Of a DNA stretch of 64,000 bases, positions 1 through 41,883 are shown in pieces. The DNA is taken from positions 1,786 to 65,785 of the forward strand of contig CAZBNF010000001.1 in NCBI GenBank assembly GCA_964493115.1, written 5' to 3'. The first letter of the stretch is position 1. Every line of letters starts with the position of its first letter. The notes beneath the pieces are model-generated. The model had not been told where the DNA came from. It was given only the letters and a program-made list of their open reading frames with translations, and did not search any database. Source of the DNA: an uncultured Planctomycetia bacterium (GTDB lineage Bacteria > Omnitrophota > Gorgyraeia > JABMRG01). Both the position numbers and the translations under genes were made by a program.

Positions 1-2043
1 AACCGTTCCACTACCTACTTTGCTTTCTACCTTTATGCTGCCGTTATTCCGTTGAACAAGTTCCTTGACAACAGCCAAGCCATAACCACTGCCTTTAGCT
101 CCGCCTTTTGTAGTATAAAATGGCTTGAAAACCTTATCAAGATTATCTTTAGGTATGCCGCAGCCCGTGTCTTTTATCTCAACCCTTATTGCTTTGACAT
201 CCTCTTTTGCGATAACCGTAATTGTACCGTTTTCTCCTATGGCCTCAATAGCATTTCTTATGAGATTGAAAAATATCTGCTGCAGCTGATGCTCGTCTGC
301 TATTATCTTTGATAATTCCTTTGCTATTGACTTCGTAACTGTTATTTTTGTCTCTTCAAGTTTATGCCTAAGCAGGGCGAGAGATTCATCTAAAACCTTC
401 TCAATATCAACAGGCTTTGAAGCAACTATGTTTGAGGGCTTCGCAAACCCGGAAAGCTTGCTTGTTATATCCGTTACTTTTTTTATCTCTTCCATGGTAT
501 TTGACATTATCTGTTCTGCCTTATCGGAACCGGCCTTTGAAGATTTTTCATCTTTATCATTAAGATACATCTGCATTTGCATGCTTATCCTGCTTAGCGG
601 GCCGCAGATTTCATGGTTTATAGCAGAGGTAATAGTGCCTATCGTAGCTAGCTTTTCATTCTGAGCAGCCTGCATGAAAAGCCTGGCATTGCTTATAGCT
701 ATGGACAAGGCTTTGGTCAGGGTTGTCAATATGTCAATGTCTTCTGCGCTGTACTCCTGGTCTGATTTTTTAGGGCCTAAGCTTAATATACCTACAAGCT
801 CACTATGGATAATTAAAGGTATGCATAAATGAGAGCATATTTTATCCATATCTTTTTTAACAGCATCAGAGGCCTGAAGTACCTTATCATAGCTTTGATA
901 CAGTAACGGTATGCTATTAGACCGTAATGATTTCATAAGCTCACTTTCAGTATCAAGATATATTCCCTTATCCTCTATGCCGATGGAATCATATATTTCA
1001 TAACCTATTTCCTCCCTGCTTAACAATAGTATCGCACAATTAGCAAGATATAGATTGTTAACCAGCGTCTCCGCTGTAACTTTACAAAGCCTGTCAAGAT
1101 TTAGAATGGTCAATACCTCATCCGCGAAATCCCTTAGAATCTTTCCGGGGCTGTATTTTTTCTGAAAGAGGTACCTGTTTGTTATATTCACAAGGAAATT
1201 CTTAAAAGGATCATGCAGTAATATAATAAGAAAAATGCTTATTGCAATGGATGAATAGAGATTTACTCGTCCGGCAGGCAGCAGGAAAAACGAAACAAAA
1301 CTTACAACCCCGGCAAAAACACCAAACATCAGGCCGAACAAACCGGCAAATACCAGTGTCTTTTTGATTATAACTTCTATATTAAGGAGCTTATGGCGTA
1401 TTATCGCATATGCCACTAATACCACGTATCCGACTATCAAGATATTCGGATATGGTGGAAATTTTATGTTATACCACATAGGCCAATTAGATGCTCCTCC
1501 TATAAATCCAAAAACAGCTGCTACCAAACAATACTTGATCTGCTCATGCTTCAAACCGCTGCTATCTTTTAATCCTAACACAAAATACCTAAAACCATAT
1601 AATGCCTGGGCAAACCAAAAAACTAAATACACACTAAAAAGCGTGCTCGGGACAGGCCACAATCCAAAATTATATTTCGTTATAAAGTTTTCATAAAAAA
1701 AGCCTGAAAAATTACAATAACCGAAAACAATACTAATCACATATATGATAGCCAACGGTTTCTTTTTTTCTGATATTTTATCAGTAAAAACAAAAACAAA
1801 ATGTAGAAAAGCGGCATTTATCAATATAAATCCTAAAACCAGAACTTTAAACCAAAATATTTTGCTCGCCAAATCAGCAGTTACTTGCCACAAGAAATAA
1901 CCTACACTATAAAGCGTTATAGATAAATTAACATTTAAATATGCTTTGCTTGTGGATGTATTAGGGTTTTTTAGGTACCCATATAAGCCAAGCACAAGGC
2001 TGGTTGCTGCATTTAATAAACCGGTAAAAGCTAAAAAAGTCAT
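1..2043 (-). CDS. Sensor histidine kinase: N-terminal multi-TM domain, GAF-like domain, HisKA and HATPase_c. The C-terminal ~20-30 aa run off the left window edge (partial).
   Basis: Reverse-strand translation from ATG at 2043..2041 gives MTFLAFTGLLNAATSLVLGLYGY... with ~7 hydrophobic segments. It is followed by a GAF-like region, an H-box (AINHEICGPLSRISMQMQ) and N/G boxes (IRNAIEAIGENG, GSGYGLAVVKELV) reaching position 1. It is absent from the ORF track because its stop lies outside the window. Confidence 0.7.
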   Translation of the reverse strand, partial: MTFLAFTGLLNAATSLVLGLYGYLKNPNTSTSKAYLNVNLSITLYSVGYFLWQVTADLASKIFWFKVLVLGFILINAAFLHFVFVFTDKISEKKKPLAIIYVISIVFGYCNFSGFFYENFITKYNFGLWPVPSTLFSVYLVFWFAQALYGFRYFVLGLKDSSGLKHEQIKYCLVAAVFGFIGGASNWPMWYNIKFPPYPNILIVGYVVLVAYAIIRHKLLNIEVIIKKTLVFAGLFGLMFGVFAGVVSFVSFFLLPAGRVNLYSSIAISIFLIILLHDPFKNFLVNITNRYLFQKKYSPGKILRDFADEVLTILNLDRLCKVTAETLVNNLYLANCAILLLSREEIGYEIYDSIGIEDKGIYLDTESELMKSLRSNSIPLLYQSYDKVLQASDAVKKDMDKICSHLCIPLIIHSELVGILSLGPKKSDQEYSAEDIDILTTLTKALSIAISNARLFMQAAQNEKLATIGTITSAINHEICGPLSRISMQMQMYLNDKDEKSSKAGSDKAEQIMSNTMEEIKKVTDITSKLSGFAKPSNIVASKPVDIEKVLDESLALLRHKLEETKITVTKSIAKELSKIIADEHQLQQIFFNLIRNAIEAIGENGTITVIAKEDVKAIRVEIKDTGCGIPKDNLDKVFKPFYTTKGGAKGSGYGLAVVKELVQRNNGSIKVESKVGSGTV

Positions 2044-2047
2044 TGTT

Positions 2048-3388
2048 TTATTTCTTGGTTATATTGAAAAATAAAATTATATTGGATTTATCTCTTTCAA
2101 TTTTTAAATCAAAGCTCTCTGCTATGCTGTTATGTACTATATCCAGTATATTCTTTTCGTTTCTTGGATAAAATGTCCAATTAGCCCACCAATCAATGGG
2201 AATGGGGTCATATTGTGTCATATCTTTGTGGGCCAAAACTAAGGAACCCCATGGTTGCAGGATACTAAACCAAAAGGAAATTAGCCGTTTAAGTATTTTG
2301 TCAGGAATATAATCCGCCAATCCTATGCTATAGATAAGTGAATAATTACCTAAAATCTTTTTGTATTCCTGGTCATTTTTTATATAATCTAATACATTAT
2401 GATTCAAATAATTGAATTTTAAATCTTTGGATTCGTAAGAAGCCAGGGCATTTCTGGAAAAATCCAAAGCCTCCTGATCATGATCTACCAATGTAAAAAT
2501 CATTTCTTTTTTTGGTACAGAACCTGTGCACAATACATCTACTATTTCCCTGCAAGATCCACAAGCAATGTTTAATATCTTTATAGCACCGGGTTGTCCG
2601 CTAATCAAATGCTTATTAAGTATGTCCTTCATCTTGTCTTTTCTGTTTCTCACAGCAACAGCATACTTATTATTTAGAAAATACGTGTCCGAGCAATATC
2701 CAATACCTTCCGAAATTGCTTTATTGTCATATATGAATTCTATGGTTAAGTAGTCTCCTGGATATCCACGCGGCTTTTCAAAAGCTCGCTTAAGAATTTT
2801 ACCTTTATACCCCCATGGCCCTAAAAGTGTCCTGAAACACTCTTTCAATTTTTTAGCAAGCGGTTTACTATTAAGCAGATTTTCAATTTCATGACCCTTT
2901 TTTACAATATCATCATTTAAATTTTCAGATTTCTTGCACGCATGGTCTAATAAGATATTATTATCTCGAATACTGCATGCAAGGGAATCCAATTGTGACA
3001 TAAACTTCTTACAATAAACAACAAAAAAATCTATCACTCTTTGTTTTGTTTCAAAAACTGGTATGTTGCCAACTACGCGCTCTATTGCCTTACGTATATA
3101 TATCTCACGTAAAAGATCTCGTTCTTTTTCTTTTAACCGTATAAAACAGGCACCATACCTGAACTTGCCTTTCTGCACAAGCTGCTTGTTCCAGATAACC
3201 TTAAACTCTGTTTTTATTGACTCTTTTGGTGATAACTCTATTTCTGCGGTTACTTTTGACAGCGATAGAGGTTTTTCAAAAACCAGACCAAGGCCTGTCT
3301 GGCTAATATCCACAACCTCGCCAAGAATATTAGAATCAATTTTTATAGGAAAAGACGCGTTGACTCTTGGATATGCCCGATTCTCCAT
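2048..3388 (-). CDS. PilZ-domain protein fused to a class I SAM-dependent methyltransferase (446 aa).
   Basis: The N-terminus has PilZ-like motifs (RAYPRV...DISQTGLGL). The C-terminal half has methyltransferase motif I (ILNIACGSCREIVDV) and downstream motifs (LVDHDQEALDFSRN, IYSIGLADYIPD). Its start overlaps the upstream gene (ATGA at 3388) and its stop lies 4 nt before the kinase start. Confidence 0.6.
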   Translation of the reverse strand: MENRAYPRVNASFPIKIDSNILGEVVDISQTGLGLVFEKPLSLSKVTAEIELSPKESIKTEFKVIWNKQLVQKGKFRYGACFIRLKEKERDLLREIYIRKAIERVVGNIPVFETKQRVIDFFVVYCKKFMSQLDSLACSIRDNNILLDHACKKSENLNDDIVKKGHEIENLLNSKPLAKKLKECFRTLLGPWGYKGKILKRAFEKPRGYPGDYLTIEFIYDNKAISEGIGYCSDTYFLNNKYAVAVRNRKDKMKDILNKHLISGQPGAIKILNIACGSCREIVDVLCTGSVPKKEMIFTLVDHDQEALDFSRNALASYESKDLKFNYLNHNVLDYIKNDQEYKKILGNYSLIYSIGLADYIPDKILKRLISFWFSILQPWGSLVLAHKDMTQYDPIPIDWWANWTFYPRNEKNILDIVHNSIAESFDLKIERDKSNIILFFNITKK

Positions 3389-4302
3389 TACTTAACCTTT
3401 TTTACTAAATCATGCTTAAAACATATTGACCAGAGCATCTTATTAAGGCGCTCTGCGTTTTCCTTGTTCTTTTCTTCGTCATATTTGAACATATCTTCAC
3501 CCTCAACCCAGATACCAGTGCTTTGAATAGTGCCTTTTAAACCGTGGGAATTTATATCCTGTTGTGTGCCGTGTACGATTATCGCCTTGGGGGCATATTT
3601 CGATTTCATAATATCAGCTAGCAGGCCGGCTGTTGGTTCAGATTTTCTGCCATGAGGTTCATCCATAGGCACATCTGTAGCGCATATTACTATATCGGGC
3701 CTGAATGCTGATAATGCTGACAGCACTTCCTTTTGACAATATACAGATATATACTCGTATTCGCCGTAAGGCTCTATAAGCGGGGGTGGGTATTCATTTT
3801 CACCATCCTGAATCGGCAAAAGATACGGCATCCAGAACTCTCTTTCCACAAAAAGTATCTTTGCCACAGGGATAACATCATCGCGTTTTTTGATTTCATC
3901 AAGTGTAACAGGAATAACTGTTGTATCTTTATCTTTCTGAGCCTTTAATACCTCATCAAGCCTTTCTTTTATTTCATTTAATACAGGGGGCTTTGGGAAA
4001 AAGCCGTCAACTCCAAGCTTTGCCACCACATCTTTCACCTGGGAATCATAGCTTGTTATCACTAATACTTTTGTTGAGGCGTATTTCTCGCGTATTATTT
4101 TTAGTATTTGCGTACCTTTTATGCCGGGAAGCTGCATATCAAGCAGAACCGCATCAGGCCTTTGCGTTTCAAGTATTTTCAAGGCCTCTTCACCTGTTAA
4201 GGCAACGTATAATTCATAATCAGAGGCCTTTAAAAAGTAACTTTCAAACAGGTTTACCAGGCTTTGATCATCTTCTACCATGAGAACTTTCATATTAGGC
4301 AT
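3388..4302 (-). CDS. Response regulator: N-terminal REC domain plus an uncharacterised ~180-aa C-terminal output domain.
   Basis: MKVLMVEDDQ...DAVLLDMQLPGIKG...VLVITSY...GVDGFFPKP is a typical CheY-like receiver with the phospho-acceptor Asp in LLDMQLPG. The C-terminal half (DVPMDEPHG...AIIVHGTQQD) matches no family I can name from memory. A GAGGAGG Shine-Dalgarno sequence lies 5 nt upstream. Confidence 0.75.
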   Translation of the reverse strand: MPNMKVLMVEDDQSLVNLFESYFLKASDYELYVALTGEEALKILETQRPDAVLLDMQLPGIKGTQILKIIREKYASTKVLVITSYDSQVKDVVAKLGVDGFFPKPPVLNEIKERLDEVLKAQKDKDTTVIPVTLDEIKKRDDVIPVAKILFVEREFWMPYLLPIQDGENEYPPPLIEPYGEYEYISVYCQKEVLSALSAFRPDIVICATDVPMDEPHGRKSEPTAGLLADIMKSKYAPKAIIVHGTQQDINSHGLKGTIQSTGIWVEGEDMFKYDEEKNKENAERLNKMLWSICFKHDLVKKVK

Positions 4303-4451
4303 ACCATCCTCCTCTTAAAGCTTAGCTTTTTTTAGTTTAGTATTATTATAACAAATAGAAATACCTTATGGTAGGGGAAAGTGAGAGAAGCGGTGTTTTT
4401 TTAATATGATAGTTTTGCTGGGGGTATGAGATATGCGAACAGACTATATAA

Positions 4452-7400
4452 TTACGCGGCTTTTTGTATTGCGCTGTTTCTATTTTTAAGGTTTCTAAGA
4501 TTTGCAGGGTCAATTCTGTTGCTTCTTATATCAACAGCAGGCGTTGTGACCGTGGTTTCTTGTGGAGTCATTAATGTATCGGATGTAATGCTTCTTTGGG
4601 CATTAGCAGATGATAATAATCTCATAACAGCTTTTTCAAGGATCAGGCTTGAGCGATGTTTTTGCTGCAGCCTCTGCAAAACAGGAAGTGCCCTTATATC
4701 TTCTATTTTACCTAATACTTCGGCAAGGCCTTCCATTTGACTTATACTATTAGTTTTTTCTATCGTATTTAGCAAAACAGGCACTATTTCTTTGCCTTTT
4801 TGTGTTAATACCTCTATGGCTTGTTCTCTTTTTTCTAAGGCAAGATGTTCTTCATTATAAGAACCAGCGCTTGAAGATTTCACCTGCATTTCAGCAGTTT
4901 TTGAAAGACTATTAACCCCAACTTCGGAAGCGGGTTTTTGATGCACTATAATATCTATTAAAACTTTGGCCAACACTTTTGGTAAATCATCAATCTCATT
5001 AACTAAAATAAATGGTTTATAAACATCTTTTACGTATTCCATAGCATATCCAATACCTATGCCAATTACTTCTATGTGTTTTCTATGGGCTTCAGCTAAA
5101 TATTTAGTTACACTCTCTCTCCCATTGCCCTGCCCATCTGTAATTACAATAGCTATCTTTGAATCTCCATCTTGACTTTCTAATTCCTTGATTGCCAACT
5201 CTACAGCCTCTGCATCGTTAGTGCCTTGTCCGCGTGCCATATAACTTAGCACTTCACTAATCAGGCTATCCTTGTTTTCATACCGGAATTTCTTGCCAAA
5301 CTCTTTATGAATCCAAGCTCTTTCGCTAAAACCTATTACGCTAAAATCAATATCCAGCCGCGATAGTACTTCTTGCAATAATACCAGGCTATGCATAGCG
5401 TTTATTACCTTATCAGAAGATCCCATTGAACCGCTTTCATCTAAAACAAGTGCAAATTTGAAGCTGCGCTTAGTAGGCTTTACTCTTCTTAACCATATGT
5501 CCATATCTGCGGTTTGTTCCATTTGCATGGCTTTTCTCAAATTTAGTTTTGGCCCGGTAGAATAATCACCTTTATATTTAGGCTTAATGTCTTTATGTAA
5601 TTCATTATCCAAAACACCGAATAACTGTTCAATCAAGCGGGTCATAGGAAGATAGTACTCATCATAACGTGTTAATTTTCTTTTACTATCTTGGTCGAGC
5701 TTCTCTCTAAGCTCTATTTGCTCTAATGCTGAAAGAGATTTTTCGCTTTTAGAAGCTGGGATACTTCGATCCATTAAGCCCTGAGGCTGCCCTACTCCTT
5801 CAGAAATTTTAGATTTACTATCTTTTCGTTCCCGACTTTCTTCTTTAGTAAGTGCGTCTGATGCTGTTTTTTTCTCATCAGTCTTATCTGCGCTACCCTT
5901 TATTACTTGGTTTTTAGTATCTGCTCTGCCGGCATCTTTCTTTACCCTGCTGCTTCCCGCAGTTTTATCTTCGGAAACAGTTTTTTCCAATTCTTCGTCA
6001 ATGGGAAATTTTCGCCCTAAAGCGTCTGCTGCTTCTTTAGATTTTTGTTCAACTTCTTGATTAGCTTTTTCCTGTTGTTGCTGAGAAGAAGCACCCTTAC
6101 CACTAGTTCGACTATTATTTTGCTTAGCTATACTTTTAGAGTCCTCTACGAGCTCATTATACGCGGGCAATATGTTGTGCTTGATAATCCATGCTGCATT
6201 TTGTGCAGCGCTTATTTTTTCTTCTGCGCTAGGGCTGAGATTGATAACAATATGGTGGGTTTCCCCTTCGGATAAACTAATGATTTCTTTATGACCCCTT
6301 GCTGTTGTCAGTACAATTTTATTCTCATCGATGCGCTGTATAGCACTTATATCAGGCTGTCCCAAATATTGCCTTTGCCCTATATGAGGAAGGTCAATAG
6401 ACATTGGTTTAAATACAGGAGAAGAAATTGTTATTCTATTTCCGCGTTCTTTTGTTACTGAAATAGTTCCCGGTAATGTTTCATAGGCCCTAATAGCGTC
6501 TTCCCTGGTTCTTTGCAGGACATCTAAAACGCGCTTATTCTTAATTGCAGGATGCTCTTTACCGTAAAACCAGTGGTGGATCAATCCTAATCCATATTGA
6601 ATATGCGGTAAAACAGTTGAATCATGAAAGGGCTCTTTTTGATCTATGGGGAATGTTTCTTTGTATAGATCTCTAAAGTAAGAAGAAGCCCCCTTATATT
6701 TTGCCATAATCCAATTATTGACCCGTGGATCTTCTACAGCATTAAATAAAAATCTATTTGATTCTGATTCGTGGAATTCGGGGTCAACCCATGTAATGTC
6801 ACGATGGCTGCCCTCATGCATAGCAGTTGCTACGTTGCACCGCCAGTTCTTCTTCATTAAATCCTTCTCAGGAAATACAATCGTGGGCGGGTCGGTATCA
6901 TATGTAATGCCCCATTCGTTTCCTGGATGGGGCTGAACTTTAACATTAAAATCTCCGCCAAAAAATTTCGCGGTTAATTCAATTTTACGCATAGCACTGT
7001 TTACCCGCTGCAGCTTTTGCCAGCGGTTTAACCTGCTAAACCAGCTTAATTCCTGCTGAGCCTCAGTTATATGCAATCCTGCAGAAGATGATTTTTGCGA
7101 AGTCAAATTTTCTGGATTTTTTCCTAGCTGTTCCTGCAAATTCGCTATTTCTTTATACATGCCATCTATTTTCTTGCTTAACTGGGCTAGGGCATCGCTT
7201 GTTGATTTAAGACTTTCTAATTTCTTCTGCATTGTTTCCAGATCATCTTCTGGATCTTTAGCAATTTGGCCTAAGGTTCCTTGCTGTTTTACATTTTTCT
7301 TTAAAATTAAATCTAGCTGTTCTTGAATATCATCAAGTTTGCTTTCAGTGCTTTTGGTTTCAACCGTTTTAGTTTCCAGCTCTTGTTGCGGAGCTCTGGC

Positions 7401-10400
7401 GGACTCCTCTAATCTTGCCTCTTTTTCCTGTCTTTCTTTTTCAGCTTGTGCTTTGTGCGCGGTTTCTGCTTCGGTTGCTTGAATACGGGATTCTGCTTCT
7501 TTAAATTTCTGCTCAAAACGGTCTTTTAATTCTTGCGTTCTTTGTGGATCATGCCTTTCCACAATAACTATCTTTTCTTCAAACAACTTTCTTTCTCTCT
7601 CTAAACCCTCTCTGCTGCCTGCTGAGGATGTCTTAGTAGCCGCGATATTGTCTAGGGACTGCATAATCGACTCTATATCAGACACAGCATTTCCCACGCT
7701 GATTGCAATAGCGCGCTCTGTATCAATCTTTTGCCTTCTGGCATTTATCTCTTTTTCAATATCGGCAAACTCGGCGTACAAGTCCTCTCCATATCCTTGC
7801 TTAAATTCCACGGAATATTTACCCGCATGCTCTTCGGACGCAGCTATCAGGACTATATCATTAACTATATCTTCATTTTTATCTATTATTGACTCTATTT
7901 GTTTAGACTGCTGCCTGCTTAGCTCTTCTAATCTTGCCTCTTTTACAAATAAAGTTCTGGGTTGTGAAATAGTTTTAAAAAACTCATTTGGAATTTCAGT
8001 TTCTTTTGTCTCTCTTTCAGGAGCAGCCAAGTAATGTTTGACTATTGAAATTTGTTCTTCTTCAGGCTGTTCACCAGAAACCCACAGTAAGCTAAATTTG
8101 TTAAGCATGGCCAAAGACAACCTCATTCTGCCTGCATAACTTTCAGGATTCATCGCAGCAAATAACCTAAAGGTGGGGTGTATACGATAAAAACCTTGTT
8201 TCCTCAACTGCGCATGAGCAATACTATCTGCTGTAGCAGGGTCTCGCGTAATGTTACCGCTTTTTAGTATCTCTTCTTTAAGTTTGTTGAATTTAGTATC
8301 ATATAATTTTGCGGGTAAATAAACTTCGTTCTCATGCTCTGTAACCACAAGAATTCCATCATCATCTAAGAGACTATTTATGCGCTCAAGCACTTCAGGC
8401 TCAGCTAAATTTAACTCATCAATGAGAATCCAACTGCCAGTTTCTAATGCTTGGAGCAATGCCCCTGGGTACCATTTATATCGGTTGGTCTTTTCCTCGG
8501 GAATAAACTGACCTATGAGTTCAGCTACATCCGTTTGGCCATCAAGATCTAAACTTATAAAATTTATATTGACAAGATCCGATAGATGTCTTACAAAAGC
8601 AGTTTTTCCGCCTCCTGTTGGCCCGACAAGAAGCATGGGTTCGTTTCTTAGTACCGCCTTGGCTAATTTTTTAAGATACTTAGAGGTAGAAGGTGTTAAA
8701 TCTAAAGGATGAGCAGGAACATAAATATCCCTACGGCCATTTGTTTCAAGATATATATCTCCGAAATATATTTTATTACCCTTACTAGAAATCTGATAAT
8801 CAGTATCATAAAAATCACTGCCAAATTTTTCAGCTAGCGTATCATAAAGATATTTTCTAAGTTCCTCTTGATGCATTTCTTCAGATAATCCATCACCATA
8901 AACTTCTTTGCCCTCTAAAACAGCCGCTCTTCTTAACGTATTTTCATCTTTAACCGTAGTGTCTTTTATGCGGTTCAGCCACCGCATTAAATGTCTAATA
9001 GTATAATATATCTTGCCATCTGCCAACTTTCTCCCTTTCTCTTTTATCTGGAAATGTACATCTAAAAACTTATCTAGAAGCTGGGCAGGGAGCTCCCTTC
9101 CGTAAAGTTCCTTGATGATGTCCATTGTATCGGGGTCTCTACGTAGTTCATCTATCCACTTAACCCTGAATCTATTCATTAAAGCTGGTGAAAATCTTTT
9201 TCTACCAGCATATTCTGCATCAGCGGGATTCATTGTCGCTAACAAACGGAAGTCTGGATGTATGCGGTATAGTTTTGTATCTTTAACCACAAGATACTCT
9301 GCGCCGTTTGAGTCCTTTTTAATCGCATCTGTATTGGATTTAAGTAAAATCTTTTTTTGATCATCATACCTCTCTGCCTGTATCCATTTCTCATTCTCAT
9401 GTTCGGTCACTACTAAAAATCCATCATCGTCTAATAAGGAATTTAATCTCTCAATGATCTGAGACGGGGCAAGATTGATCTCATCTAAAACAAGCCAATG
9501 CCCTTCTCGCATTGCTTCGATTAATATGCCATTGCGCCAAACAAAAACGCCATTTTCATCGGGCTTAAAGCCACCAATAAATTCTAATTTTTCTGTTTGG
9601 CCGCTTAGATTAAATCTTCGGAAATTATTTCGTGATTTATTAGCAAGATATCTTATAAAAGAAGTCTTACCTACGCCTGTTTCTCCTACCAATAAAAGAG
9701 GTTCTTTTAAAATTATACTCAAGGCAATATTGCTGAGATTTAATTTTGTTTGAGGCGTTAAAATAAGTCTTGCAACTTCTTCACTGGGGACATAATCCAA
9801 TGTATTATTTTTATTAACAAGCACTTGGGCACCTTCAATGTCAATTGATTTACTATCAAAATTAATTTCAACAGGCACACGTCCAATCGCATACAATTTT
9901 AAATAATCCAAGTCCAACAACGGGACCGCCATTTGCTTTCCCTTCAAAACATCCTCAATAATCTCTATAAACAGTTTCCTGTCGTTTGTTTTTGAATCCT
10001 CTCCTTTTTCATTTTTATATCTGAATTCTTTGGCATGCAGCCTGTCAATATAGATATAAGCCAGTCCTTTATTAAATGCCTTATTCATGCCAACTTTAGG
10101 GCTCATCATGGAAATATAACGTGATAGAGCCCGCAATTCTCTTATGCTAAACTCATATTCTGCAGTAAAAACTGAAAGTTTTTTAAAAATATCCTGGAGT
10201 TCTGTGTGGAATAAAACCATGGCTTTAGCTGCTGAGTCCAAGGCGTGGCCTTTAATAGTACCTTTTGAATACTCCGATAAATATCCTTTAGTTATTTCCG
10301 TTAATTCTTCAAAAGACATATCGCCAGAAATCCAGATTTCGGTAAATTTATTACGCATTGCTATAGACAGCCTGTTTCTGCCTGCATAATGCTCTGGGTT

Positions 10401-13400
10401 CATTGCTGAAAAAAGTCTAAAATCAGGATGAATTCTAAATATCTTTTCTTTTGTCAGCTTTTCGATTGCCCTTTGCCTCGCTTCTTCTTTGGATACTCCC
10501 GAAGTAATATATTCCTTTATAAATACATCTAATTTCTTTTCGTATTCAACACTTGATATAAGTTTTTCGTTCTCATGTTCGGTTATCACCAAACAAGAGT
10601 CATCATCTAGAAGTGAATTTATGCGCTCTAAAATTTCAGCTTCAGCTAAATTAATTTCATCAAATAGTACCCACCATCCTTCTTTAAGCGCTCTCACTAG
10701 CATACCGTCCTGCCAGAAAAATTCGTTCTTCTTTCCCTCAACAGGAACATATTGCCCAATGAGTTCGGAAGTATCTGTTTGAGCATCTAAATTCATCCTG
10801 GCAAAATTATTTTGCGTAAGATGTGCTATATAACGAATAAATGAGGTTTTCGCACTTCCTGTCGGGCCTACCAGCAGAACTTTTTCATTCATCATAACAG
10901 CCTTGGCAATTCTTCTTAGATAATGTAAAGTACTCTGTGTGTGGGTTAAGATTGCTTCGCGTCCCGGTATGTATGGGCCTCCTCTTTGATTTTTGGGTAC
11001 AACTATATCTCCAAAAATAGAGTCAGATTGCACAATTTGCGGACTTTGGCCTAAAACAGATTGTTTCTCAAACGCTATCCTTATAAGTTCATTGGCCAGG
11101 AAGTCCTGTTCATCTTCATCACGAATTCTATCGCTATAAACCTCCCAAAGCTCTCGCATAAGGATATCATCCCTTTGGTAACCATCTAGAGGCATGCTTG
11201 TATTGTTTTCTTCTAAATCTATTATACGTGCTACTCGTTTTCCTAATTTTAAAAGATCGCGAATTGAATAGTGATACGGATCAACTGCATCTTTTCCAAT
11301 TTCCCGTAGCTTAGCTGCTGTTGATATGCGCTCATGAACAATACCAAGCCTGTCTAATGACCCGTCTCCTGAAATAAAATGCTTTTCAATGTCGTCTTTA
11401 AGGGCACCTGTTTCTTTAGCATAATACTTTTCTAAAAGTACGAGTTTTTTTTCTGTGGTGGTAAGCTCATCTATCCACTTGACCCTAAATCTATTCATAA
11501 GAGCGGGGGAAAGAATTTTACGCCCTGCATATTCAGCAGGATTCATTGTTGCAAATAAACGGAAATCGGGATGAACACAATAAATCCTTCTTCCGTCACT
11601 ATCTACAAGATAGTTAACTTTTCTAAACTCATCGAAGAACTCTTCAGCTCCCTGTCTTTTTTTCTCTTCATATACTCCGATAGACTTAAAATGCTCTCCT
11701 AAGTGTTCTGCCAAAACCAATGTGCGATCATCGTCTAAAAGCGAGTTTAGTCTTTCAAGAACCTGTGATTCTGCAAGATTTAACTCATCCAAAACCAGCC
11801 AATGCCCATAAAGCATTGCCTCTAACAGTATTCCGTCTTTCCACTTAAATACTCCTGATAGATCCGGCTTATATCCTCCTATAAATTCTGTTTTATCGGT
11901 TTGGCCGCTTAGGTTAAATCTCCTAAAACTGTGCCTGGTCAAATTAGCTAAATATCGCACCAAAGATGTTTTGCCTACGCCTGTTTCTCCTATTAATAAA
12001 ACAGGGTCATCTAATAATACAGAAAGAGATATTTGTTTTAGGGCCTTGACAGTATCTATAACAGGGATTAATTCAGAATTTTCTGATTCAGGAATAAAAA
12101 CTTGCGTATTTCCTGAATCCTGTAATGGCGCGGGTACAAAGATTTTATATATAAGAGCGCCGTTGTCCAACCGCTTGATTGCGTCTGGCCGCAATGTTTT
12201 TAGCATATCATCTTTGCTTGTAGCTTCTTTTTTTATACTTGCCACTATATTATTACTTTCAAGTAACGCATTACGATATTTTTTAAAGGTCTCTATTATC
12301 AAAGGTCCATAGCTTGATAAAATTTCCCTAAATCCAATCCATTCTCTCTTTTTAATTTCATCACCATATATTGCTTTTATAGGTTTATATACGATTTCTC
12401 TAAATGTAGTTGCGGCTAAAATAGTAAAACTGGAAATAAAATAACCAAAAGCTCCTCCGGTAATCGCGCCAAATGCAATCTGTGTCCACTGCGGAACCCA
12501 CCCAATAATAGGAATTACGGGCAGGCTGTCTATTTTTGCAGTATGGAATAGCGAAATATTGAAAATTATACCCAATATAAAGCCTGATAAAAGCGTAAGC
12601 TTGCCATACCACGTATTAAAATAATTAAGTTTTTCTTCTGATTCAAATGGGAAGTGAATAAATTTGCCTTCTTTCGTTTTTTCAAGCAATGAATAAAAGT
12701 CCTCTAAATCCAATGCCAATTTTTTATATCGTGCAGAAAGTATTTGTAGCTGCGGTAAATAAATAAGATAATATGATTGCCCGAGTAAATCTAACAGGCC
12801 AAAACTAATTCCAAATACCCCCGAAAATATACTTAAATAAGCAGAAAATACAAGTATACTGCTAGTTGTGTATAAAGCTAAAATTACGGGCAAAGTAAGC
12901 AGGCCTGCTACAATAGTGCCTGTGACTAAATAGGTAGCGGCGTTTTCTTTATTGAATCTCCAAATCCTGCTTCCAAATAGGTATCCCAAAAAAGCAATTA
13001 AAGCTGTGCTTAAGCTAAAAGACGAAGCTTGCAATATAAAAGGTGTAGCAAAAATCATTACTGCTGAACTAATAAGAAGTAAAGAAATTATTGTTGATTT
13101 TTTCTTTAAAAACCCAAATATACCCAAATAATCTCCTGAACTGTCTTTTAATCTAATAAGTCTTTGCAAAGTCTTATCCCATGGCAATTTATCGGGGCGC
13201 TTGCCAGGGTTTTGCGAAAGACGCGGTATAGCTTTCTGTTCCCATTCCACCCATTCTAATTTTTCTAAAACCAAAGCTGAAGTTAATCTTAAATCTTGAT
13301 TATCATCGCTTAGAAATACCGCCAGCTTAGCCGCAAATGGTGTAAATTCATTAACAAAATTCTTATCCCTTGGGTCAAATACCTGACTTAACGTTTCCAT

Positions 13401-31315: not shown

Positions 31316-34300
31316 CTAACCTACTGTCTCTGCGACAACAGAGGCCACTGCCGATACCTTATCTTTTGTGCCTTTAAGCGTAATAACGCATACCCCCTGC
31401 GTAGAGCGGCCGCTTTCCCTGATACCTTTTACGGATGTGCGAACAATTGAACCGCTTTCCGTGATAAGCATTATCTCATCATTTTCGGATACTACGCGCA
31501 GGGCTACAGCAAAACCGGTTTTGTCTGTTGTCTTTATGTTGATTATACCCTTCCCGCCTCGTGATTGTATTCTATATTCGCCAATAGGGGTTCTTTTGCC
31601 AAATCCTTTCTCGGATATTGTCAGCAAAGTCGAGTCAGCACGCGCTATCACCATACCTATCACAAGGTCTTTTTTGCCTAAAGATATCCCCCGTACGCCC
31701 CGGGCGGCACGGCCCATGTTCCTGATGGCACTGGACTTAAATCGAATTGCCTTGCCCTCTTTTGTGGCCAAGATAATGTCATCCTTGTCATCTGTGCATG
31801 CCGCCTCGATAAGCTTGTCCCCTTTTTCGATAGTAATGCCTATGATGCCGCCTTTACGCGTATTGGCATAGGCGGCAAGCTCGGTTTTTTTGACAACACC
31901 TTGTTCTGTTGCCATAAAAATATAACCGCCTTTTTCAAAATCCTTGACCCTTACAAAAGCACTTATGGCTTCTCCAGTAGACAGTTGGAGAAGATTAACA
32001 ATCGCCTTGCCTTTTGATGCTCTTCCAGCCTGCGGGATTTCGTGCACCTTGACCATATACGCCTTGCCTGTGTTGCTAAAAAATAGTATGTGCTCGTGCG
32101 TTGTCGCGATAAATAAATGCTCGGCAAAGTCCTCTTCTTTAAGCTCGGCCCCCACCATGCCTTTGCCGCCTCTTTTTTGGCGGCGGTAAGCACTTACAGG
32201 CAATCTTTTAATATACCCTCCGTGGCTTATAGTAATCACCACATCTTCTTCCGCTATAAAATCTTCTATCCGCAGGTCCTCTACTTCACCTACAATATCC
32301 GTGCGCCTGTCATCACCGTATTTTTTTTGCATCTCAAGCAACTCTTCTTTTATGATGCCCAGGACGCGAACCTCGCTTGCCAGGATTGCCTCATATCCTT
32401 GTATTTTTTTGATCAATTCTAAATATTCCGCGTCTATCTTGGTGCGCTCAAGCGCTGTCAGCCGCTGAAGCTGCATCTCGAGAATAGCCTGAGCCTGACG
32501 CGTGCTCAGGTCAAAGTTTTTTTCAAGCGCATTTTTTGCCGACTGCGTATCCTTTGCGGACTTTATAGTCTTAATAATTTTATCGATATACTTAAGCGCT
32601 ATTTTTAAACCTTCCAAAATATGGGCGCGTTCCTGGGCCTTGCGTAACAGAAAATCTGTACGCCGCCTTACAATCTCTTTACGATGGTCAACATGCAGAT
32701 CAAGCATCTGGCGCAGGTTCAAGACCCGGGGCTGGTTGTTAACCAGCGCAAGCATAATAATACCAAATGTCGAGGCAAGTTGTGTGTGTTTGTAGAGTTG
32801 GTTTAAAATAACCTGCGCGGGCCTATCACGCCTAAGCTCCACAACAATCCGGATCCCGTCTTTGTCGGATTCATCTCGTATATCGGAAATGCCGTCTATT
32901 TTTTTATCCGTCACAAGCCTTGCGATAGACTCGATAAGGTTTGTCTTGTTTACCTGATACGGCAGCTCTGTTATGATAATGGCGCTCTTGCCGGCTTTTT
33001 GTTCCTCCACGCTGGCGCGCGCATGCAGTTTTATAATGCCGCGCCCTGTGGTATAAGCGCTCTTTATACCGCTTTTACCACAGATAGTCGCCCCTGTCGG
33101 GAAATCAGGGCCCCTTACAATCTTCATAAGGCCGCTCATATCTGTCTGCGGCTCATCTATCACTTTAATAATCGCGTTGATCGTCTCGCGTAAATTATGA
33201 GGCGGAATATTAGTTGCCATACCTACCGCGATACCGCTGCAGCCATTTACAAGAAGGGTAGGAAGCGCTGATGGCAGCAGCACCGGCTCTTTAAGCGAGC
33301 CATCAAAGTTTGGCGTGAAATCCACGGTCTCTTTATCAATATCCGCAAGAAGCTCATCCGCTATAGAGGCCATGCGCGCCTCCGTGTATCTCATAGCCGC
33401 CGCGGGGTCACCGTCGACCGATCCCCAGTTGCCCTGCCCGTCAACAAGCGGATACCGCAGAGAAAAATTCTGCACCATGCGCACCAGGGCATCATACACT
33501 GACGAATCGCCGTGCGGGTGATATTTTCCGAGGCAATTGTGAGAAAGTATGCCGTTTGCAATAAATTCGTGGTCCCCTTCGACTTGTATATCGTAGGTTT
33601 TTTCTGCAGGCGCTCGTTCGGTTGATGCCACGTTCATGAAATATATATCATCCCTGATAACATCTCTTAAAAAAGTGTAGAGCGGCGAGTTAACCTTGTG
33701 CAGCTTATCCAGTATGCCCCATTCGATAATCTGGGATTTCCTGAGCGCTTTTTCTTTAAGATCTGCCGCATATCTTATCTTGCAGCCCCCTGGATATTTT
33801 ATGCCCGCCCTGAACTTGTTGCCTTCTCCGCCTTGATACCATCCTGCCCCTATGTGTTTTTCGCTTAATTCGCTAAAAACCATCGCGCCGCTATATGGTA
33901 TAATGTCGCAATTTGATTTTTTTAAATTTCTGTTATTTAGTTCCGCGATCCTTTCTTGTTTCTTTTTATCAACCAGGTTTAGTTTGCCCGCTAAGAGTTT
34001 CGCGTTTATGCCTTTTAACTCCAGGGAATAAAATGCTTGCCTGGTATTGACGCGCCTGCCATTTATAACATCCCCCCCCCTTTTGTCTTTGTTTTTGTAT
34101 TTCGCGCCGAACATACCGTAGTGTTGCAGCAAGACAAGAAGCTTATCAATTAAACATTCTGAAGTTGAGCCGTAGTGTATAACGCATCTCTCTTTATGAA
34201 TACTGCCGTCTCCATCGACCAGCCCCGAAACAAAGGAAAAAACAACAGATTCAGGTGAATTAAATATTTGCTGTGGTATTGTTTTTGTGGCCGCCTTTGC

Positions 34301-35149
34301 CCCTTCTATCCCAAAATTTTCCCTTAAAAAATCCACCACATTTTTTCTGCAGGTTCTTGTCGTGTATTGACGGTGTGCGCTGATTACGTACTTGCCATGC
34401 GATACATAGATTTTTTCTTTGATACACGGCACATAGTTGAAATTGGCCATCAATATGTCTGCTATCTTTTCTATTGTTTCGCGCGAATTACAAGAAAAGC
34501 CTATTCTATAAGTGTCTTTTCTGCTCTTTTCCTTTGTTATCCATCCTTCGGCTATAAAAAATCCTAAAAGATAAGCCATATCTTCGTTTAGTTGCGCTGG
34601 GCACTGCCCGCCACAGCATTGACTCAATGCCGTTTTATGTTTGATATCCGGGTATGCGGCCCTTAAAACTACGTAGTCGTTGCTTGTTAGGTTTTTTGCT
34701 TCCTTCCACTCAAGCCCAAATTCTTTGTTTAGCACCTTAAATTTCTGTGAAGGGGTTGCTGTGGCTGTGTTTCCGTTGGCAAGGATAATTTTTACCAGTT
34801 CCTTGGGCGGCATTTCATACAACTCTGATACCGCGCAAATGCCCTTCTGCGTGTAAACACACTCTCCTCGTTTTACATCCTGAATAGGCACAAGCCCTCT
34901 GCTTGTCAAAACAAGTGTGTCTTTTACGAAACAATCCCCTACTATACGAGCGCTTTTTTTGTATGGCTTGGAGTACTGTAAGCTGAGCCCGTGCATAGTG
35001 TAAAGTATTCTGCGCTGAACAGGCTTTAGGCCGTCGCGCGCATCCGGCAGGGCGCGCCCGACAATTACACTCATAGCGTAATTAATATACGAGTCTTTTA
35101 TCTCGTCTTCAACATAGCGCTTCGCTATCTTTTCACCTTGTGTGTACAT
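31316..35149 (-). CDS. gyrA: DNA gyrase subunit A, interrupted by a 466-aa intein with a LAGLIDADG homing-endonuclease domain.
   Basis: The N-terminus has ...[30 protein letters not shown]. The extein reads KSARIVGD|C...SHN|[20 protein letters not shown]. Removing residues 73-538 leaves an ~811-aa GyrA with a C-terminal beta-pinwheel. Confidence 0.9.
33536..34933 (-). mobile_element. GyrA intein (466 aa), inserted in the GD/KYHPHGD region next to the active site, with a LAGLIDADG homing-endonuclease core.
   Basis: It starts with Cys (CFVKDTLVL) and ends with HN followed by a +1 Cys. Two LAGLIDADG-like blocks are present ([11 protein letters not shown] and [11 protein letters not shown]). Coordinates were checked against codon frame. 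Confidence 0.8.
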
Positions 35150-35168
35150 TTATATTTCCTTTAGTCTG

Positions 35169-39330
<4,162 letters not shown>

Positions 39331-39333
39331 GTT

Positions 39334-40428
39334 TTATGTTATCTGCATGGGCAGGACAATATATACATATTCGTCACGTATCCTTAGCACCCCGGGCTTC
39401 TCCGGGCCCGTAAATTCTATTTCCACCGTTTCTTCTTCTATGCTTTTCAAGACATCTAAAAGATATGTTGGATTAAACCCTATCTGCAGTTCCGCGCCCG
39501 AATAAACCACCTCAAGCTCTTCTGTGGTCTCCCCTACCTCCGGTGTTGTTTTACTAATTATGAGTTTATTTTTTGTCAGGTGAAGCTTTATTGCCTGCGA
39601 TTCTACTGTTGTTAGCAGGCTTGCCCGTTTTATGGCTGGTATCAACTGTTCCTTGTTGATCGTTAGCGCGGTTTCTGTTTTGCATGGTATGGCCTGCTGG
39701 TAGTTGGGGAATTCACCCTCAATAAGCCTTGATATGATGGTGGTGTTGTCTATTTGGAAAACAATTTGATTGGTTGTAAATTTTATTAGCACACTGCCGT
39801 CTTCTTTTAGGGTTTTGAATAACTCTTGTACTGTTTTTGCTGGTATTATTATAGTTTGCCCCTCCCGCACCTCTGATTTATGTGGTTTCTTTATAATAGC
39901 CAGGCGCCTGCCGTCCGTTGCTATAATTTGCAGATGTTTCAGTTGGATCTCCATGCAAACCCCATTCAGCACATACCTGGTCTCTTCCTTGCTCATCGCG
40001 AACGCTGTATAGGTAAGCATTTGCTTTAGTGTGTTTTGTTGCATAGTAAGTGTTTGTGTGTTTTGATTGGTAGGTATATTGGGAAATTCTTCTTTTGGTA
40101 TGGTTAGTATTTTAAAAACGGTGTTTTTGGTTGTAATTAATAAGATGTTGTTTTTTTTGGTTGTTATTTGTATATCTTCATTCGGAAACTCTTTAATGAT
40201 ATCCAGAAACCTTTTTGCGGGTATTGTGGTAGAGCCTTGCTCAAATACACCCGCTTCTTGTGTATGTGTTATGCCTATATTTAAATCTGTCGCGGTTATT
40301 TTAATTGCGGTTGGTTCTGTTTCAAGTAATATGTTCGCCAATATAGGGAGTGTATTTTTTTGGGCCACCGCCCCCATTACTATTTGTAAAGATTCTAGCA
40401 GTGCTTGTTTTGGTATAGTTATCCTCAT
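39334..40428 (-). CDS. dnaN: DNA polymerase III beta sliding clamp.
   Basis: A 364-aa protein with a three-domain beta-clamp-like sequence (MRITIPKQALLESLQIVMGAV...) in the conserved dnaA-dnaN synteny. Confidence 0.9.
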   Translation of the reverse strand: MRITIPKQALLESLQIVMGAVAQKNTLPILANILLETEPTAIKITATDLNIGITHTQEAGVFEQGSTTIPAKRFLDIIKEFPNEDIQITTKKNNILLITTKNTVFKILTIPKEEFPNIPTNQNTQTLTMQQNTLKQMLTYTAFAMSKEETRYVLNGVCMEIQLKHLQIIATDGRRLAIIKKPHKSEVREGQTIIIPAKTVQELFKTLKEDGSVLIKFTTNQIVFQIDNTTIISRLIEGEFPNYQQAIPCKTETALTINKEQLIPAIKRASLLTTVESQAIKLHLTKNKLIISKTTPEVGETTEELEVVYSGAELQIGFNPTYLLDVLKSIEEETVEIEFTGPEKPGVLRIRDEYVYIVLPMQIT

Positions 40429-40509
40429 ATTAACACCCTCTATTTTATCTATTTATTTATTAAATATAATAGTATTAATAGTAATTGGTGTGGAAAGGTG
40501 TATAAACAC
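40429..40509. promoter_or_regulatory. Candidate oriC / DNA-unwinding element in the dnaA-dnaN intergenic spacer.
   Basis: A very AT-rich tract (tctattttatctatttatttattaaatataatagtattaatag) is followed by degenerate DnaA-box-like sequences (tgtggaaag) and a palindrome (aggtgtataaacacct). Confidence 0.35.
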
Positions 40510-41883
40510 CTAACCCCCACACCTAATTTGTTTTATAAGATTATCTACAATTTGTGTTAGTTGTGTGTTATTTACCATAGCCGACTCTATCTTGTTACAG
40601 GCATGCAATACGGTTGTGTGATCACGCCCCCCAAAAAAACCACCAATTTCTGTCAAGGGGGATTTGGTAAGTTCACGCGCTAAATACATAGCAATCTGCC
40701 GCGGGAAAGCCAACAACCTGGTTCTTTTTTTAATACGCATAGTGTTGGCGCCAACACTAAAATAATCCGCTACAATGCGCTGTATTTTATCAACAGTAAT
40801 ATCAAGCCCCCGCTTGGCCTCAACCTCTTGCAGCACATCTTTAACCGATCCCATACTCACAGGCTGGCCCATAAGAGATGAGTACGCGATTACGCGAATA
40901 AGCGCGCCCTCTAACTCCCTTATGTTTGTTTTAATATTTTCGGCGATATATAACAAAACCCCATCTTCAACCGAGGCGTTTGAAAACTCAAGTTTTTTTC
41001 TTAAGATCGCTACCCGGGTTTCTATATCTGGCGGCTGTATGTCTGTGACAAGCCCCCACTCAAACCGCGAAACCAGACGATTTTCCAGGGCAGGTATTTC
41101 TTTGGGGGGCCTGTCGCTAGAGACAATAATTTGCTTGTGGGCGTCGTATAGGGTGTTGAATGTGTGAAAGAATTCTTCCTGTGTCGATTCTTTACCGGAG
41201 AGAAACTGTATGTCATCAACCATTAAAACATCCAGTTGCCGGTAGTGGTCTTTGAATTTTTGCGTTGTACGGTTTTGTATGGCGCTGATTAGTTGGTTGG
41301 TGAATTTTTCGCTCGACATATACAACACCTTAAGCCTGGGGTGTTTTGTTAGGGTGTGCTGTCCAATCGCCTGCATTAAATGAGTTTTACCAAGCCCGAC
41401 ACCGCCGTAAATAAACAGCGGATTATAGGATTTAGCGGGTGATTCCGCAACAGCAGTGGCGGCAGCGTGTGAAAAACGATTACACCCGCCAATTACGAAA
41501 CTGTCAAAGGTGTATCTGGGGTTGAAATTACTTTCTTTCGCGGCCGGAGCGCGTTCAAATGGATTCTGGAAAAGACGAAAACCGCCACGCTTATCCTGTG
41601 CGTGCGTATCGTCCTGCGGGCCCGCTTCTACCCTGGCCGGTGTTTGGTAGTCTATTGTTAGCTGCTCTTTCTCGATACTTTTTAGGGCGAGGCTTATCTG
41701 GCCTGAATAATGTTCTATAAGCCAGTCTTTAAAAAAAGTGTTTGGCACCTCGACGGAAATTGAATCCATTCCTGAGGACAGCTGCCTGGTGGGGGCGAAC
41801 CACGTTTCATAACTTTGCGGGCTTACTTGTTTGCGTACGTGCTGCAAAACAGCGCCCCACGTACCATCAAGTGCTTGAGACAT
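40510..41883 (-). CDS. dnaA: Chromosomal replication initiator DnaA.
   Basis: A 457-aa protein with the Walker A motif GGVGLGKTHLMQAIG and a C-terminal DnaA DNA-binding helix (VLHACNKIESAM). Confidence 0.95.
   Translation of the reverse strand: MSQALDGTWGAVLQHVRKQVSPQSYETWFAPTRQLSSGMDSISVEVPNTFFKDWLIEHYSGQISLALKSIEKEQLTIDYQTPARVEAGPQDDTHAQDKRGGFRLFQNPFERAPAAKESNFNPRYTFDSFVIGGCNRFSHAAATAVAESPAKSYNPLFIYGGVGLGKTHLMQAIGQHTLTKHPRLKVLYMSSEKFTNQLISAIQNRTTQKFKDHYRQLDVLMVDDIQFLSGKESTQEEFFHTFNTLYDAHKQIIVSSDRPPKEIPALENRLVSRFEWGLVTDIQPPDIETRVAILRKKLEFSNASVEDGVLLYIAENIKTNIRELEGALIRVIAYSSLMGQPVSMGSVKDVLQEVEAKRGLDITVDKIQRIVADYFSVGANTMRIKKRTRLLAFPRQIAMYLARELTKSPLTEIGGFFGGRDHTTVLHACNKIESAMVNNTQLTQIVDNLIKQIRCGG

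Follow-up and report, generated by a model that had tools for sequence, protein, structure and literature searches.

A PilZ-methyltransferase fusion encoded beside a 7TM sensor kinase in Omnitrophota: a possible Phc-like signal cassette under c-di-GMP control

What might be the role of a methyltransferase that carries a receptor domain for the second messenger cyclic di-GMP (c-di-GMP) and whose gene lies between those of a response regulator and a membrane-bound histidine kinase? This question is raised by the first 4,302 positions of a stretch of 64,000 nucleotides (nt) from an uncultured member of the Omnitrophota (assembly GCA_964493115.1, contig CAZBNF010000001.1), here called the window, in which a protein of 446 amino acids (aa) combines a PilZ domain with a class I methyltransferase dependent on S-adenosylmethionine (SAM). 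We tentatively read this locus as a signal-synthase/sensor cassette resembling the Phc system of Ralstonia, with a synthase that would be gated by c-di-GMP, a possibility that we rate slightly below even. An original prediction, made from the sequence alone, had proposed methylation of a substrate under the joint control of c-di-GMP and a phosphorelay. Support was found for both inputs, but the prediction had left the substrate entirely open, and it can be narrowed by the homology of the enzyme core to PhcB and by the resemblance of the predicted structure to 3OCJ, a crystal structure with bound palmitate.

Organization of the operon

The regulator, PilZ-methyltransferase and 7TM-GAF kinase genes named in the original prediction were all present on the minus strand, and their domains were identified by Pfam. 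The genes and their domains are:

4303..4451, minus strand: intergenic region from the stop of a giant gene to the regulator start, 149 nt
3388..4302, minus strand: response regulator gene, 304 aa
3958..4287, minus strand: REC domain of the regulator, residues 6-115 (PF00072)
3391..3891, minus strand: C-terminal domain of the regulator, probable pseudo-receiver, residues 138-304
2048..3388, minus strand: PilZ-methyltransferase fusion gene, 446 aa
3101..3385, minus strand: canonical PilZ beta-barrel, residues 2-96 (PF07238)
2603..3091, minus strand: all-helical region, probably the substrate-binding lid, residues 100-262
2051..2602, minus strand: class I Rossmann-fold SAM methyltransferase domain, residues 263-446
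1..2043, minus strand: sensor histidine kinase gene, 681 of 689 residues in the window
1189..2043, minus strand: polytopic membrane sensor region, residues 1-285, with HisKA_7TM at 12-222 and two further hydrophobic segments
694..1101, minus strand: cytoplasmic GAF domain, residues 315-450 (PF01590, PF13185)
1..681, minus strand: dimerisation/phospho-acceptor region with H477, and HATPase_c, of the AtoS/ZraS type

The three genes are tightly coupled. The TAA of the regulator gene and the ATG of the fusion gene overlap by 1 nt as TAATG; the ATGA previously placed at 3388 is not found there, and it is the stop of the regulator gene, not its start, that overlaps the fusion start. The kinase ATG follows the fusion stop after a gap of 4 nt, as had been predicted. 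Contigs of the same genome encode a full-length kinase of 689 aa, and the window therefore lacks only 8 of its residues. Reading of the sequence at 4303..4451 revealed a strong ribosome-binding site (AGGAGG) 5 nt before the regulator ATG. Because a scan of positions 1..4700 for promoters and terminators was uninformative, with counts at the shuffled expectation, we only infer that this intergenic region holds the operon promoter.

In the same genome, past position 1 of the window (L094, 13473..15331), a gene for a 76-aa acyl carrier protein (ACP) begins 58 nt after the kinase stop and is followed by a gene for a 504-aa phospholipase D-like (PLDc_2), cardiolipin-synthase-like protein. This pair of genes was not conserved in the other loci.

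Homology of the methyltransferase core to PhcB

In Ralstonia solanacearum the phcBSRQ genes encode PhcB, which makes the methyl esters of 3-hydroxymyristic and 3-hydroxypalmitic acid (3-OH MAME/PAME), the sensor kinase PhcS and the regulators PhcR and PhcQ. As the PhcB reference we used a homologue from Paraburkholderia graminis, standing in for the Ralstonia protein, whose gene was found by tblastn of plasmids. The identity of this reference as a PhcB rests on operon structure, on the product names in its cluster and on its identity to homologues of Cupriavidus and Paraburkholderia. Its operon follows the phcBSRQ pattern, with genes for a methyltransferase of 468 aa, a kinase of 445 aa and two regulators of 134 and 344 aa. 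The PhcB product name is attached to members of the 90% cluster of this protein, both in JGI/IMG and in some of the NCBI and UniRef records. Its identity to homologues from Cupriavidus, Massilia and Paraburkholderia is 64-92%, which fits the range for PhcB homologues in those genera (PMC6989110). The complete phcBSRQ-like operon (L091, pPHS1_P 432595..436970) lies on a 494-kb conjugative plasmid, with a gene of the cyclopropane-fatty-acyl-phospholipid synthase family just upstream.

BLASTP aligned the fusion protein of the window with the Paraburkholderia graminis protein at 26% identity over 245 aa (E 2e-22). Comparison of the fusion family by hhalign gave a probability of 99.6% with the single protein (E 8.5e-24) and of 99.7% with an alignment of the PhcB family (E 2.9e-26, residues 190-420). 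Among the aligned positions is a signature that precedes the Rossmann fold and reads FEKPRGYPGDY in the fusion and TKPLGYAGDY in PhcB; the similarity therefore exceeds generic SAM-binding motifs. Both a KPxGYxGDY and a GLxDYLxD motif are common to the two systems. The likeness extends to the size of the enzymes (about 468 aa for PhcB, 446 aa for the fusion), to the gene for a polytopic membrane histidine kinase directly following that of the methyltransferase, and to the regulators, since PhcR, PhcQ and the regulators of the cassette are all without DNA-binding outputs. Database labels of the homologues read PilZ domain-containing or methyltransferase domain-containing only, with the exception of P0009 (52% identical to the window fusion), which bears the PhcB product name in JGI.

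The conserved N-terminal region of about 200 residues in PhcB has no Pfam match and includes R22, the site of a published adaptive R22C mutation. A gapless match by eye (SF at 12-13, G23, N27) had suggested a cryptic PilZ domain in this region. The idea was dropped after hhalign comparisons of PilZ and N-terminal sub-alignments with the PhcB N-terminus, used either singly or as a profile of 37 sequences, remained below 1%. Distant relatives of the methyltransferase core with 23-28% identity were common on Rhizobium plasmids and chromids (122 records), and Enterobacter ludwigii plasmids encode a type I polyketide synthase that contains a related domain. A copy on a Pseudanabaena plasmid adjoins a convergently oriented HAMP kinase and a regulator.

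Fold and structural relatives of the methyltransferase

An AlphaFold2 (AF2) model of the fusion, built on the alignment of its homologues, reached a predicted local distance difference test score (pLDDT) of 91.5 and a predicted template modelling (TM) score (pTM) of 0.87. Beyond the PilZ strands it consists of helices at 87-262 and of the alternating strands and helices of a Rossmann fold at 269-445. The helical region at residues 100-262 is probably a substrate-binding lid. It contains the family signature F-E-K-P-R-G-Y-P-G-D-Y at 203-213, in which K205, G211 and D212 are invariant. In the Rossmann domain motif I reads LNIACGSCRE; D302, D304 and D359-Y360 are conserved, and G277, E281 and D302 are invariant. 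Methyltransf_20 (PF12147) was matched at residues 215-291 with 23.1 bits against a cut-off of 21, a partial match over profile positions 78-157 of 309; relatives scored up to 33.9 bits. Generic class I methyltransferase families of Pfam were all matched below their cut-offs, and no family in NCBIfam matched the fusion protein.

A Foldseek search of the model against the PDB returned 736 matches at E<=0.001, and the top 50 were methyltransferases, led by 3OCJ (E 3.2e-10, 329 aligned columns, 18% identity). This structure is BPP1064, the ortholog of Bordetella pertussis FmtB (BP2936), and its crystal contains palmitate in the helical substrate domain (PMC5426589); FmtB raises methyl-palmitate levels in vivo (PMC5426589). 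The next best matches were small-molecule C- and O-methyltransferases, and the exceptions among the top 50 were a peptide-bound N-terminal protein methyltransferase and the tRNA-modification enzyme CmoA. CheR was absent from these 50 structures, and the CheR families of Pfam (PF03705, PF01739) gave no match at E<=1. In sequence searches the only links to solved structures were to PilZ domains and to one generic methyltransferase, at marginal E-values, and 3OCJ was not among them.

FmtB and 3OCJ resemble the fusion in that a helical part, the probable lid of the fusion, precedes the Rossmann SAM domain, and in 3OCJ the substrate cavity of this part holds palmitate. These proteins differ from it in being without PilZ and in having no detectable sequence similarity to it. 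FmtB, whose activity is known in vivo only, is furthermore under transcriptional control by BvgAS, whereas the gene studied here lies beside that of a sensor kinase.

The PilZ domain

The original prediction had described the N-terminus of the enzyme as a PilZ domain of the c-di-GMP receptor type and had named the two motifs by which this could be judged. PF07238 was matched at residues 2-96 with 35.8 bits, well over the cut-off of 22.5, and both motifs are canonical: RxxxR is present as R4-A-Y-P-R8 and DxSxxG as D27-I-S29-Q-T-G32. They are near-invariant among 98 full-length homologues, with R4 and R8 found in all 98, an aspartate or asparagine at position 27 in 97, S29 in 88 and G32 in 97. 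In the AF2 model the strands of the domain (8-84) and the following helix (87-107), at pLDDT 83-91, form the six-stranded barrel with C-terminal helix, and in a sequence search of the PDB the family profile matched the solved PilZ structures of YpfA and Alg44. This motif conservation is what one would expect of selection for c-di-GMP binding, and a c-di-GMP input to the methyltransferase is therefore plausible.

Control of methyltransferases by PilZ proteins is known in trans and on protein methyltransferases only. In Xanthomonas a PilZ adaptor controls an N5-glutamine methyltransferase (PMC11250160), and in Pseudomonas aeruginosa MapZ (PA4608) acts on CheR1. Both cases resemble the fusion in that c-di-GMP controls a SAM-dependent methyltransferase through PilZ; they differ in the use of separate proteins, whereas here PilZ is in cis on an enzyme of the small-molecule type. 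Full-text literature searches found no paper describing a PilZ-methyltransferase fusion, nor one describing a link between PhcB and PilZ.

Conservation of the cassette

The exact three-gene cassette recurs in other Omnitrophota contigs at 65% and 49% protein identity among unrelated flanking genes, a recurrence for which the original prediction had proposed to look. A scan of species-representative genomes revealed at least 484 stretches encoding a relative of the fusion, and an exhaustive search of 1.84 billion representatives gave 277 clusters at E<=1e-30 and, with the threshold relaxed to E<=1e-10, 1710. The best 80 of these stretches came from Omnitrophota, Spirochaetota/Leptospirales, Planctomycetota, Nitrospirota, Thermodesulfobacteriota, Margulisiibacteriota and others. 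In all loci that were retrieved, domains were mapped with phmmer and with hidden Markov models built from the window proteins. Genes were counted as adjacent when they were next to each other on the same strand within 250 nt, and 76 non-redundant loci had enough downstream sequence.

A HisKA_7TM gene lay directly downstream of the methyltransferase gene in 51 of these 76 loci and another histidine kinase gene in 6 more; several of the remaining 19 carried the 7TM kinase upstream. The conserved unit is therefore the methyltransferase with its 7TM sensor and not the three genes. PilZ was present on 45 of 82 methyltransferases, the others being cores of about 350 aa without the N-terminal domain. 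Forms with two PilZ domains and an HTH_17-PilZ-methyltransferase were also found among the relatives. In L010 (5631..11221) the HisKA_7TM region is fused to HD-GYP, not to a kinase, and still adjoins two of these methyltransferases; the link is therefore to the sensor domain and not to kinase chemistry. The same locus also encodes a second methyltransferase of the Methyltransf_20 type and a PEMT phospholipid methyltransferase.

A gene for a single-domain REC protein often follows the kinase gene in related loci, and at least seven operons (L006 at 9525..11625, L025, L028, L029, L045, L053 and L068) end with one or two REC genes and, last, the gene for a c-di-GMP phosphodiesterase of GAF-HD-GYP architecture. 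Fusions of REC-PilZ-methyltransferase (L038, 587 aa) and of REC-methyltransferase (P0100) also exist. They would place a phosphorylation input directly on the enzyme, and these domain architectures support a phosphorelay input. In L008/L009 (298..5969), which encode a relative with 40% identity, the methyltransferase gene directly follows that of a FadL/Toluene_X protein, a channel for hydrophobic compounds in the outer membrane, and genes for an acyl-AMP ligase, a carrier protein and GDSL-lipase/TPR proteins lie further upstream.

The sensor histidine kinase

HisKA_7TM (PF16927) was matched at residues 12-222 of the kinase (E 3e-13, 50.6 bits against a cut-off of 28.6), within a hydrophobic region that spans residues 1-285 in a hydropathy scan. 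The H-box HEICGP contains the phospho-acceptor H477, HATPase_c was matched with E 2.6e-25, and the core is AtoS/ZraS-like (E 2e-54).

Pairs of a synthase and a membrane kinase are familiar from cell-to-cell signalling, where CqsS and LqsS sense the product of the adjoining synthase gene. CqsA-CqsS, LqsA-LqsS and AgrBD-AgrC resemble the locus studied here in that the synthase gene adjoins the gene of a multi-pass kinase which binds a hydrophobic or peptide product in the membrane. They differ in that their enzymes and sensor domains are unrelated to those of the cassette, and we know of no c-di-GMP gate on synthases of the CqsA, LqsA or AgrBD type.

The response regulator

The REC domain of the regulator (residues 6-115, PF00072, E 2.5e-22) has all catalytic residues, namely the acidic pocket E10-D11-D12, the phospho-acceptor D55, T83 and K104; D11, D55, T83 and K104 were conserved at 90% or more in the alignment of its homologues. 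The C-terminal half had been thought to lack an obvious DNA-binding domain. In agreement with this, neither Pfam nor NCBIfam gave a match past residue 130 or so (residues ~130-304), and the fold appears to be receiver-like and degenerate. In the AF2 model (whole-protein pLDDT 83) this half alternates strands and helices, residues 247-271 form a disordered loop, and the C-terminal end is a helix of high conservation (ENAERLNKMLWSICFKH). The best Foldseek matches of the regulator were the REC-REC' chains of PleD, covering both halves over more than 320 columns with TM-scores no higher than those of single-REC matches. By hhalign the C-terminal part was aligned with the regulator's own REC domain at 28% identity (P 0.008), in register from the first strand to the fourth, and the position of the phospho-acceptor aspartate holds an alanine. 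We conclude with moderate confidence that this half is probably a degenerate, flavodoxin-like pseudo-receiver and not a DNA binder.

The arrangement of a phosphorylatable REC followed by a second, degenerate receiver-like domain is that of PleD. It differs from PleD in that no GGDEF or other enzymatic output follows and in that the second domain is very divergent, with no Pfam match, the disordered insert at 247-271 and the conserved C-terminal helix. As the regulator is without a DNA-binding domain, it would act through protein-protein contact. Its 41 full-length homologues (56-100% identity) were found only in close Omnitrophota relatives, and regulators of the window type were confined to the closest loci, a narrow clade.

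Proposed mechanism

We propose that the fusion protein is, like PhcB and FmtB, a SAM-dependent O-methyltransferase of small molecules that acts on a carboxyl group. Its substrate would most likely be a fatty acid, either free or 3-hydroxylated, and its product a methyl ester that is hydrophobic and diffusible. Binding of c-di-GMP by PilZ might be transmitted through the linker helix to the helical lid and thereby activate or inhibit the enzyme. The HisKA_7TM-GAF kinase, translated together with it, would be the dedicated membrane sensor of the module; its cue within the membrane would most likely be the methyl ester or the lipid precursor of this ester, as PhcS detects the product of PhcB. The kinase would then phosphorylate the REC/pseudo-REC regulator, which would act by binding to other proteins. 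Its target is quite possibly the methyltransferase itself, to judge from the REC fusions; in certain relatives the phosphorelay may also pass via single-domain REC proteins to a GAF-HD-GYP phosphodiesterase and so close a loop onto PilZ.

Several observations weigh against this proposal. The resemblance to 3OCJ is structural only and, with a TM-score of 0.53 (target-normalised) and a root mean square deviation of 8.3, suggestive and not close; 3OCJ was not matched by sequence, no PDB chain of it appearing at E<=10 in profile and single-sequence searches with the window protein. Activity of FmtB in vitro was not demonstrated (PMC5426589). The identity to PhcB is only 26%, and substrate specificity is therefore not transferable; PhcB itself is not matched by Methyltransf_20, and the relatives include Rhizobium plasmid methyltransferases and a methyltransferase domain of a polyketide synthase. 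No alignment to PhcB was obtained for the N-terminal ~200 residues (hhalign below 1% with single-sequence and family profiles), which begin with a canonical PilZ here, whereas the conserved N-terminal region of PhcB has no PilZ match. The fusion is therefore a PhcB relative with a different regulatory head and not an ortholog.

Differences extend to the partners of the enzyme. The PhcS-like sensor is weakly MASE8-like in Pfam, with no match to the 7TM family or to GAF, in contrast to the HisKA_7TM and GAF domains found here, so that its assignment to HisKA_7TM was rejected and the two sensors are to be seen as analogous, not homologous. The REC/pseudo-REC regulator comes first in the operon. 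Its alignment with PhcQ is confined to the REC domains, and a PhcQ-like identity of its C-terminal domain, which is unrelated, was likewise rejected. The hosts differ as well, with Burkholderiales for the Phc system and Omnitrophota and other phyla for the present one. The cassette would work like phcBS but is outside the PhcB orthologous group, from which its N-terminal domain, its sensor family and its regulators set it apart. No ligand of HisKA_7TM was named in the titles and abstracts of the two papers found to mention this domain, and no experiment on any member of the PilZ-methyltransferase family was found in the literature searched. Finally, Omnitrophota are thought to be tiny and often host-associated, and classical quorum sensing is not an obvious need for such cells.

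Alternative explanations

The methyltransferase might be the output of the pathway only. The 7TM-GAF kinase would then sense an unrelated cue from the membrane or envelope, REC and c-di-GMP would regulate the enzyme post-translationally, and its product would serve membrane homeostasis, detoxification or surface modification and not be a signal. A regulator without a DNA-binding domain, whose output must be protein-protein contact, would suit such a pathway, as would the REC-PilZ-methyltransferase and REC-methyltransferase fusions that put the phosphorylation input on the enzyme. The same can be said of the ACP and PLD/cardiolipin-synthase-like genes that follow the kinase gene in this genome and of the PEMT phospholipid methyltransferase nearby in L010, and FmtB, for which no part in signalling was reported, was proposed to be a membrane-associated enzyme that uses free fatty acids (PMC5426589). 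However, this explanation does not account for the consistent HisKA_7TM partner, which is retained even in fusion to HD-GYP, and the nearest relative by sequence to have been characterised, PhcB, is a signal synthase whose gene adjoins that of its sensor in the same order. We regard a pure output role as rather unlikely; regulation of this kind can also coexist with the signal-synthase model, as feedback on the synthase.

Two further explanations were considered. The enzyme could be a protein methyltransferase acting on the kinase or the regulator, in a CheR-like adaptation with c-di-GMP control as in MapZ-CheR1 but in cis. CheR has a helical region N-terminal to its Rossmann fold, which is the arrangement seen in the fusion, the gene is tightly linked to that of a sensor kinase, and PilZ proteins do control methyltransferases in trans, as MapZ does with CheR1 and the adaptor of Xanthomonas with its target (PMC11250160). 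Against these points stand the missing CheR match in Pfam, the top 50 structural matches, which lack CheR and are nearly all small-molecule enzymes, a core that is clearly homologous to PhcB, and a kinase in which Pfam detected no methyl-accepting (MCP-type) domain; we consider this explanation very improbable. Hardly more likely is the original prediction in its literal form, that is, an enzyme of open substrate inside a two-component pair, with c-di-GMP supplied by the GGDEF protein at 51977..53320. The PilZ domain is intact, and the predicted GGDEF gene is real and encodes a HAMP-GGDEF protein. But 48 kb, including a giant gene and the dnaA-gyrA cluster, separate it from the operon, in related loci the cassette occurs without it, and the substrate class can be narrowed by PhcB homology and 3OCJ. 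Moreover, what is conserved is the pair of enzyme and 7TM sensor and not the two-component pair, and the enzyme therefore reads better as the synthase half of a signalling system than as an enzyme that merely sits between two signalling genes.

Implications of a possible signal-synthase cassette

It is a doubtful but consequential extension of the signal-synthase reading that PhcB-like synthases and HisKA_7TM receptors form an undescribed autoinducer system outside Burkholderiales, switched in many lineages by PilZ and c-di-GMP, which would give HisKA_7TM its first ligand class. Its scope would be Omnitrophota, Spirochaetota/Leptospirales, Planctomycetota, Nitrospirota, Thermodesulfobacteriota and Margulisiibacteriota. 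If this were true, the output of an extracellular signal would be coupled to the state of a second messenger, and many poorly studied phyla, including the ultra-small Omnitrophota, would share a quorum-sensing chemistry that is so far known from Ralstonia and its relatives alone. Fatty-acid methyl esters would become a candidate ligand class for the widespread HisKA_7TM domain. The fusion would be, within the literature searched, the first PilZ found in cis on a small-molecule methyltransferase, with c-di-GMP directly gating the synthesis of a diffusible signal. Even on a conservative reading, as a fatty-acid methyltransferase controlled by c-di-GMP and a phosphorelay, it would still add a new class of c-di-GMP output.

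Other features of the window

Outside the operon the following features were recorded:

51977..53320, minus strand: HAMP-GGDEF protein, 447 aa
4452..30212, minus strand: giant open reading frame (ORF), 8586 aa, directly upstream of the operon
31316..41883, minus strand: dnaA-dnaN-gyrB-gyrA cluster

No evidence for a specific link of the GGDEF gene to the operon was found. The giant ORF carries HEAT repeats across its N-terminal half and six dynein-type AAA_5 modules with Midasin AAA-lid domains in its C-terminal half, and it ends in a VWA/MIDAS-like motif (VLDESGSMGSS) that was recognized by eye only. It is a midasin-like architecture in a bacterium. According to a preprint (10.1101/2023.11.21.568195), small pilZ genes usually come after the giant genes of Omnitrophota. 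Such a link was considered as a feature of the cassette and rejected: homologues of the cassette elsewhere are not next to giant genes, and the adjacency seen here is therefore not a conserved property of it.

In the dnaA-dnaN-gyrB-gyrA cluster both gyrase genes are interrupted by inteins (gyrB at 35169..39032, gyrA at 31316..35149), that of gyrA with a LAGLIDADG homing-endonuclease domain. The replication origin is probably located between 41883 and 42796, where the genes change orientation.

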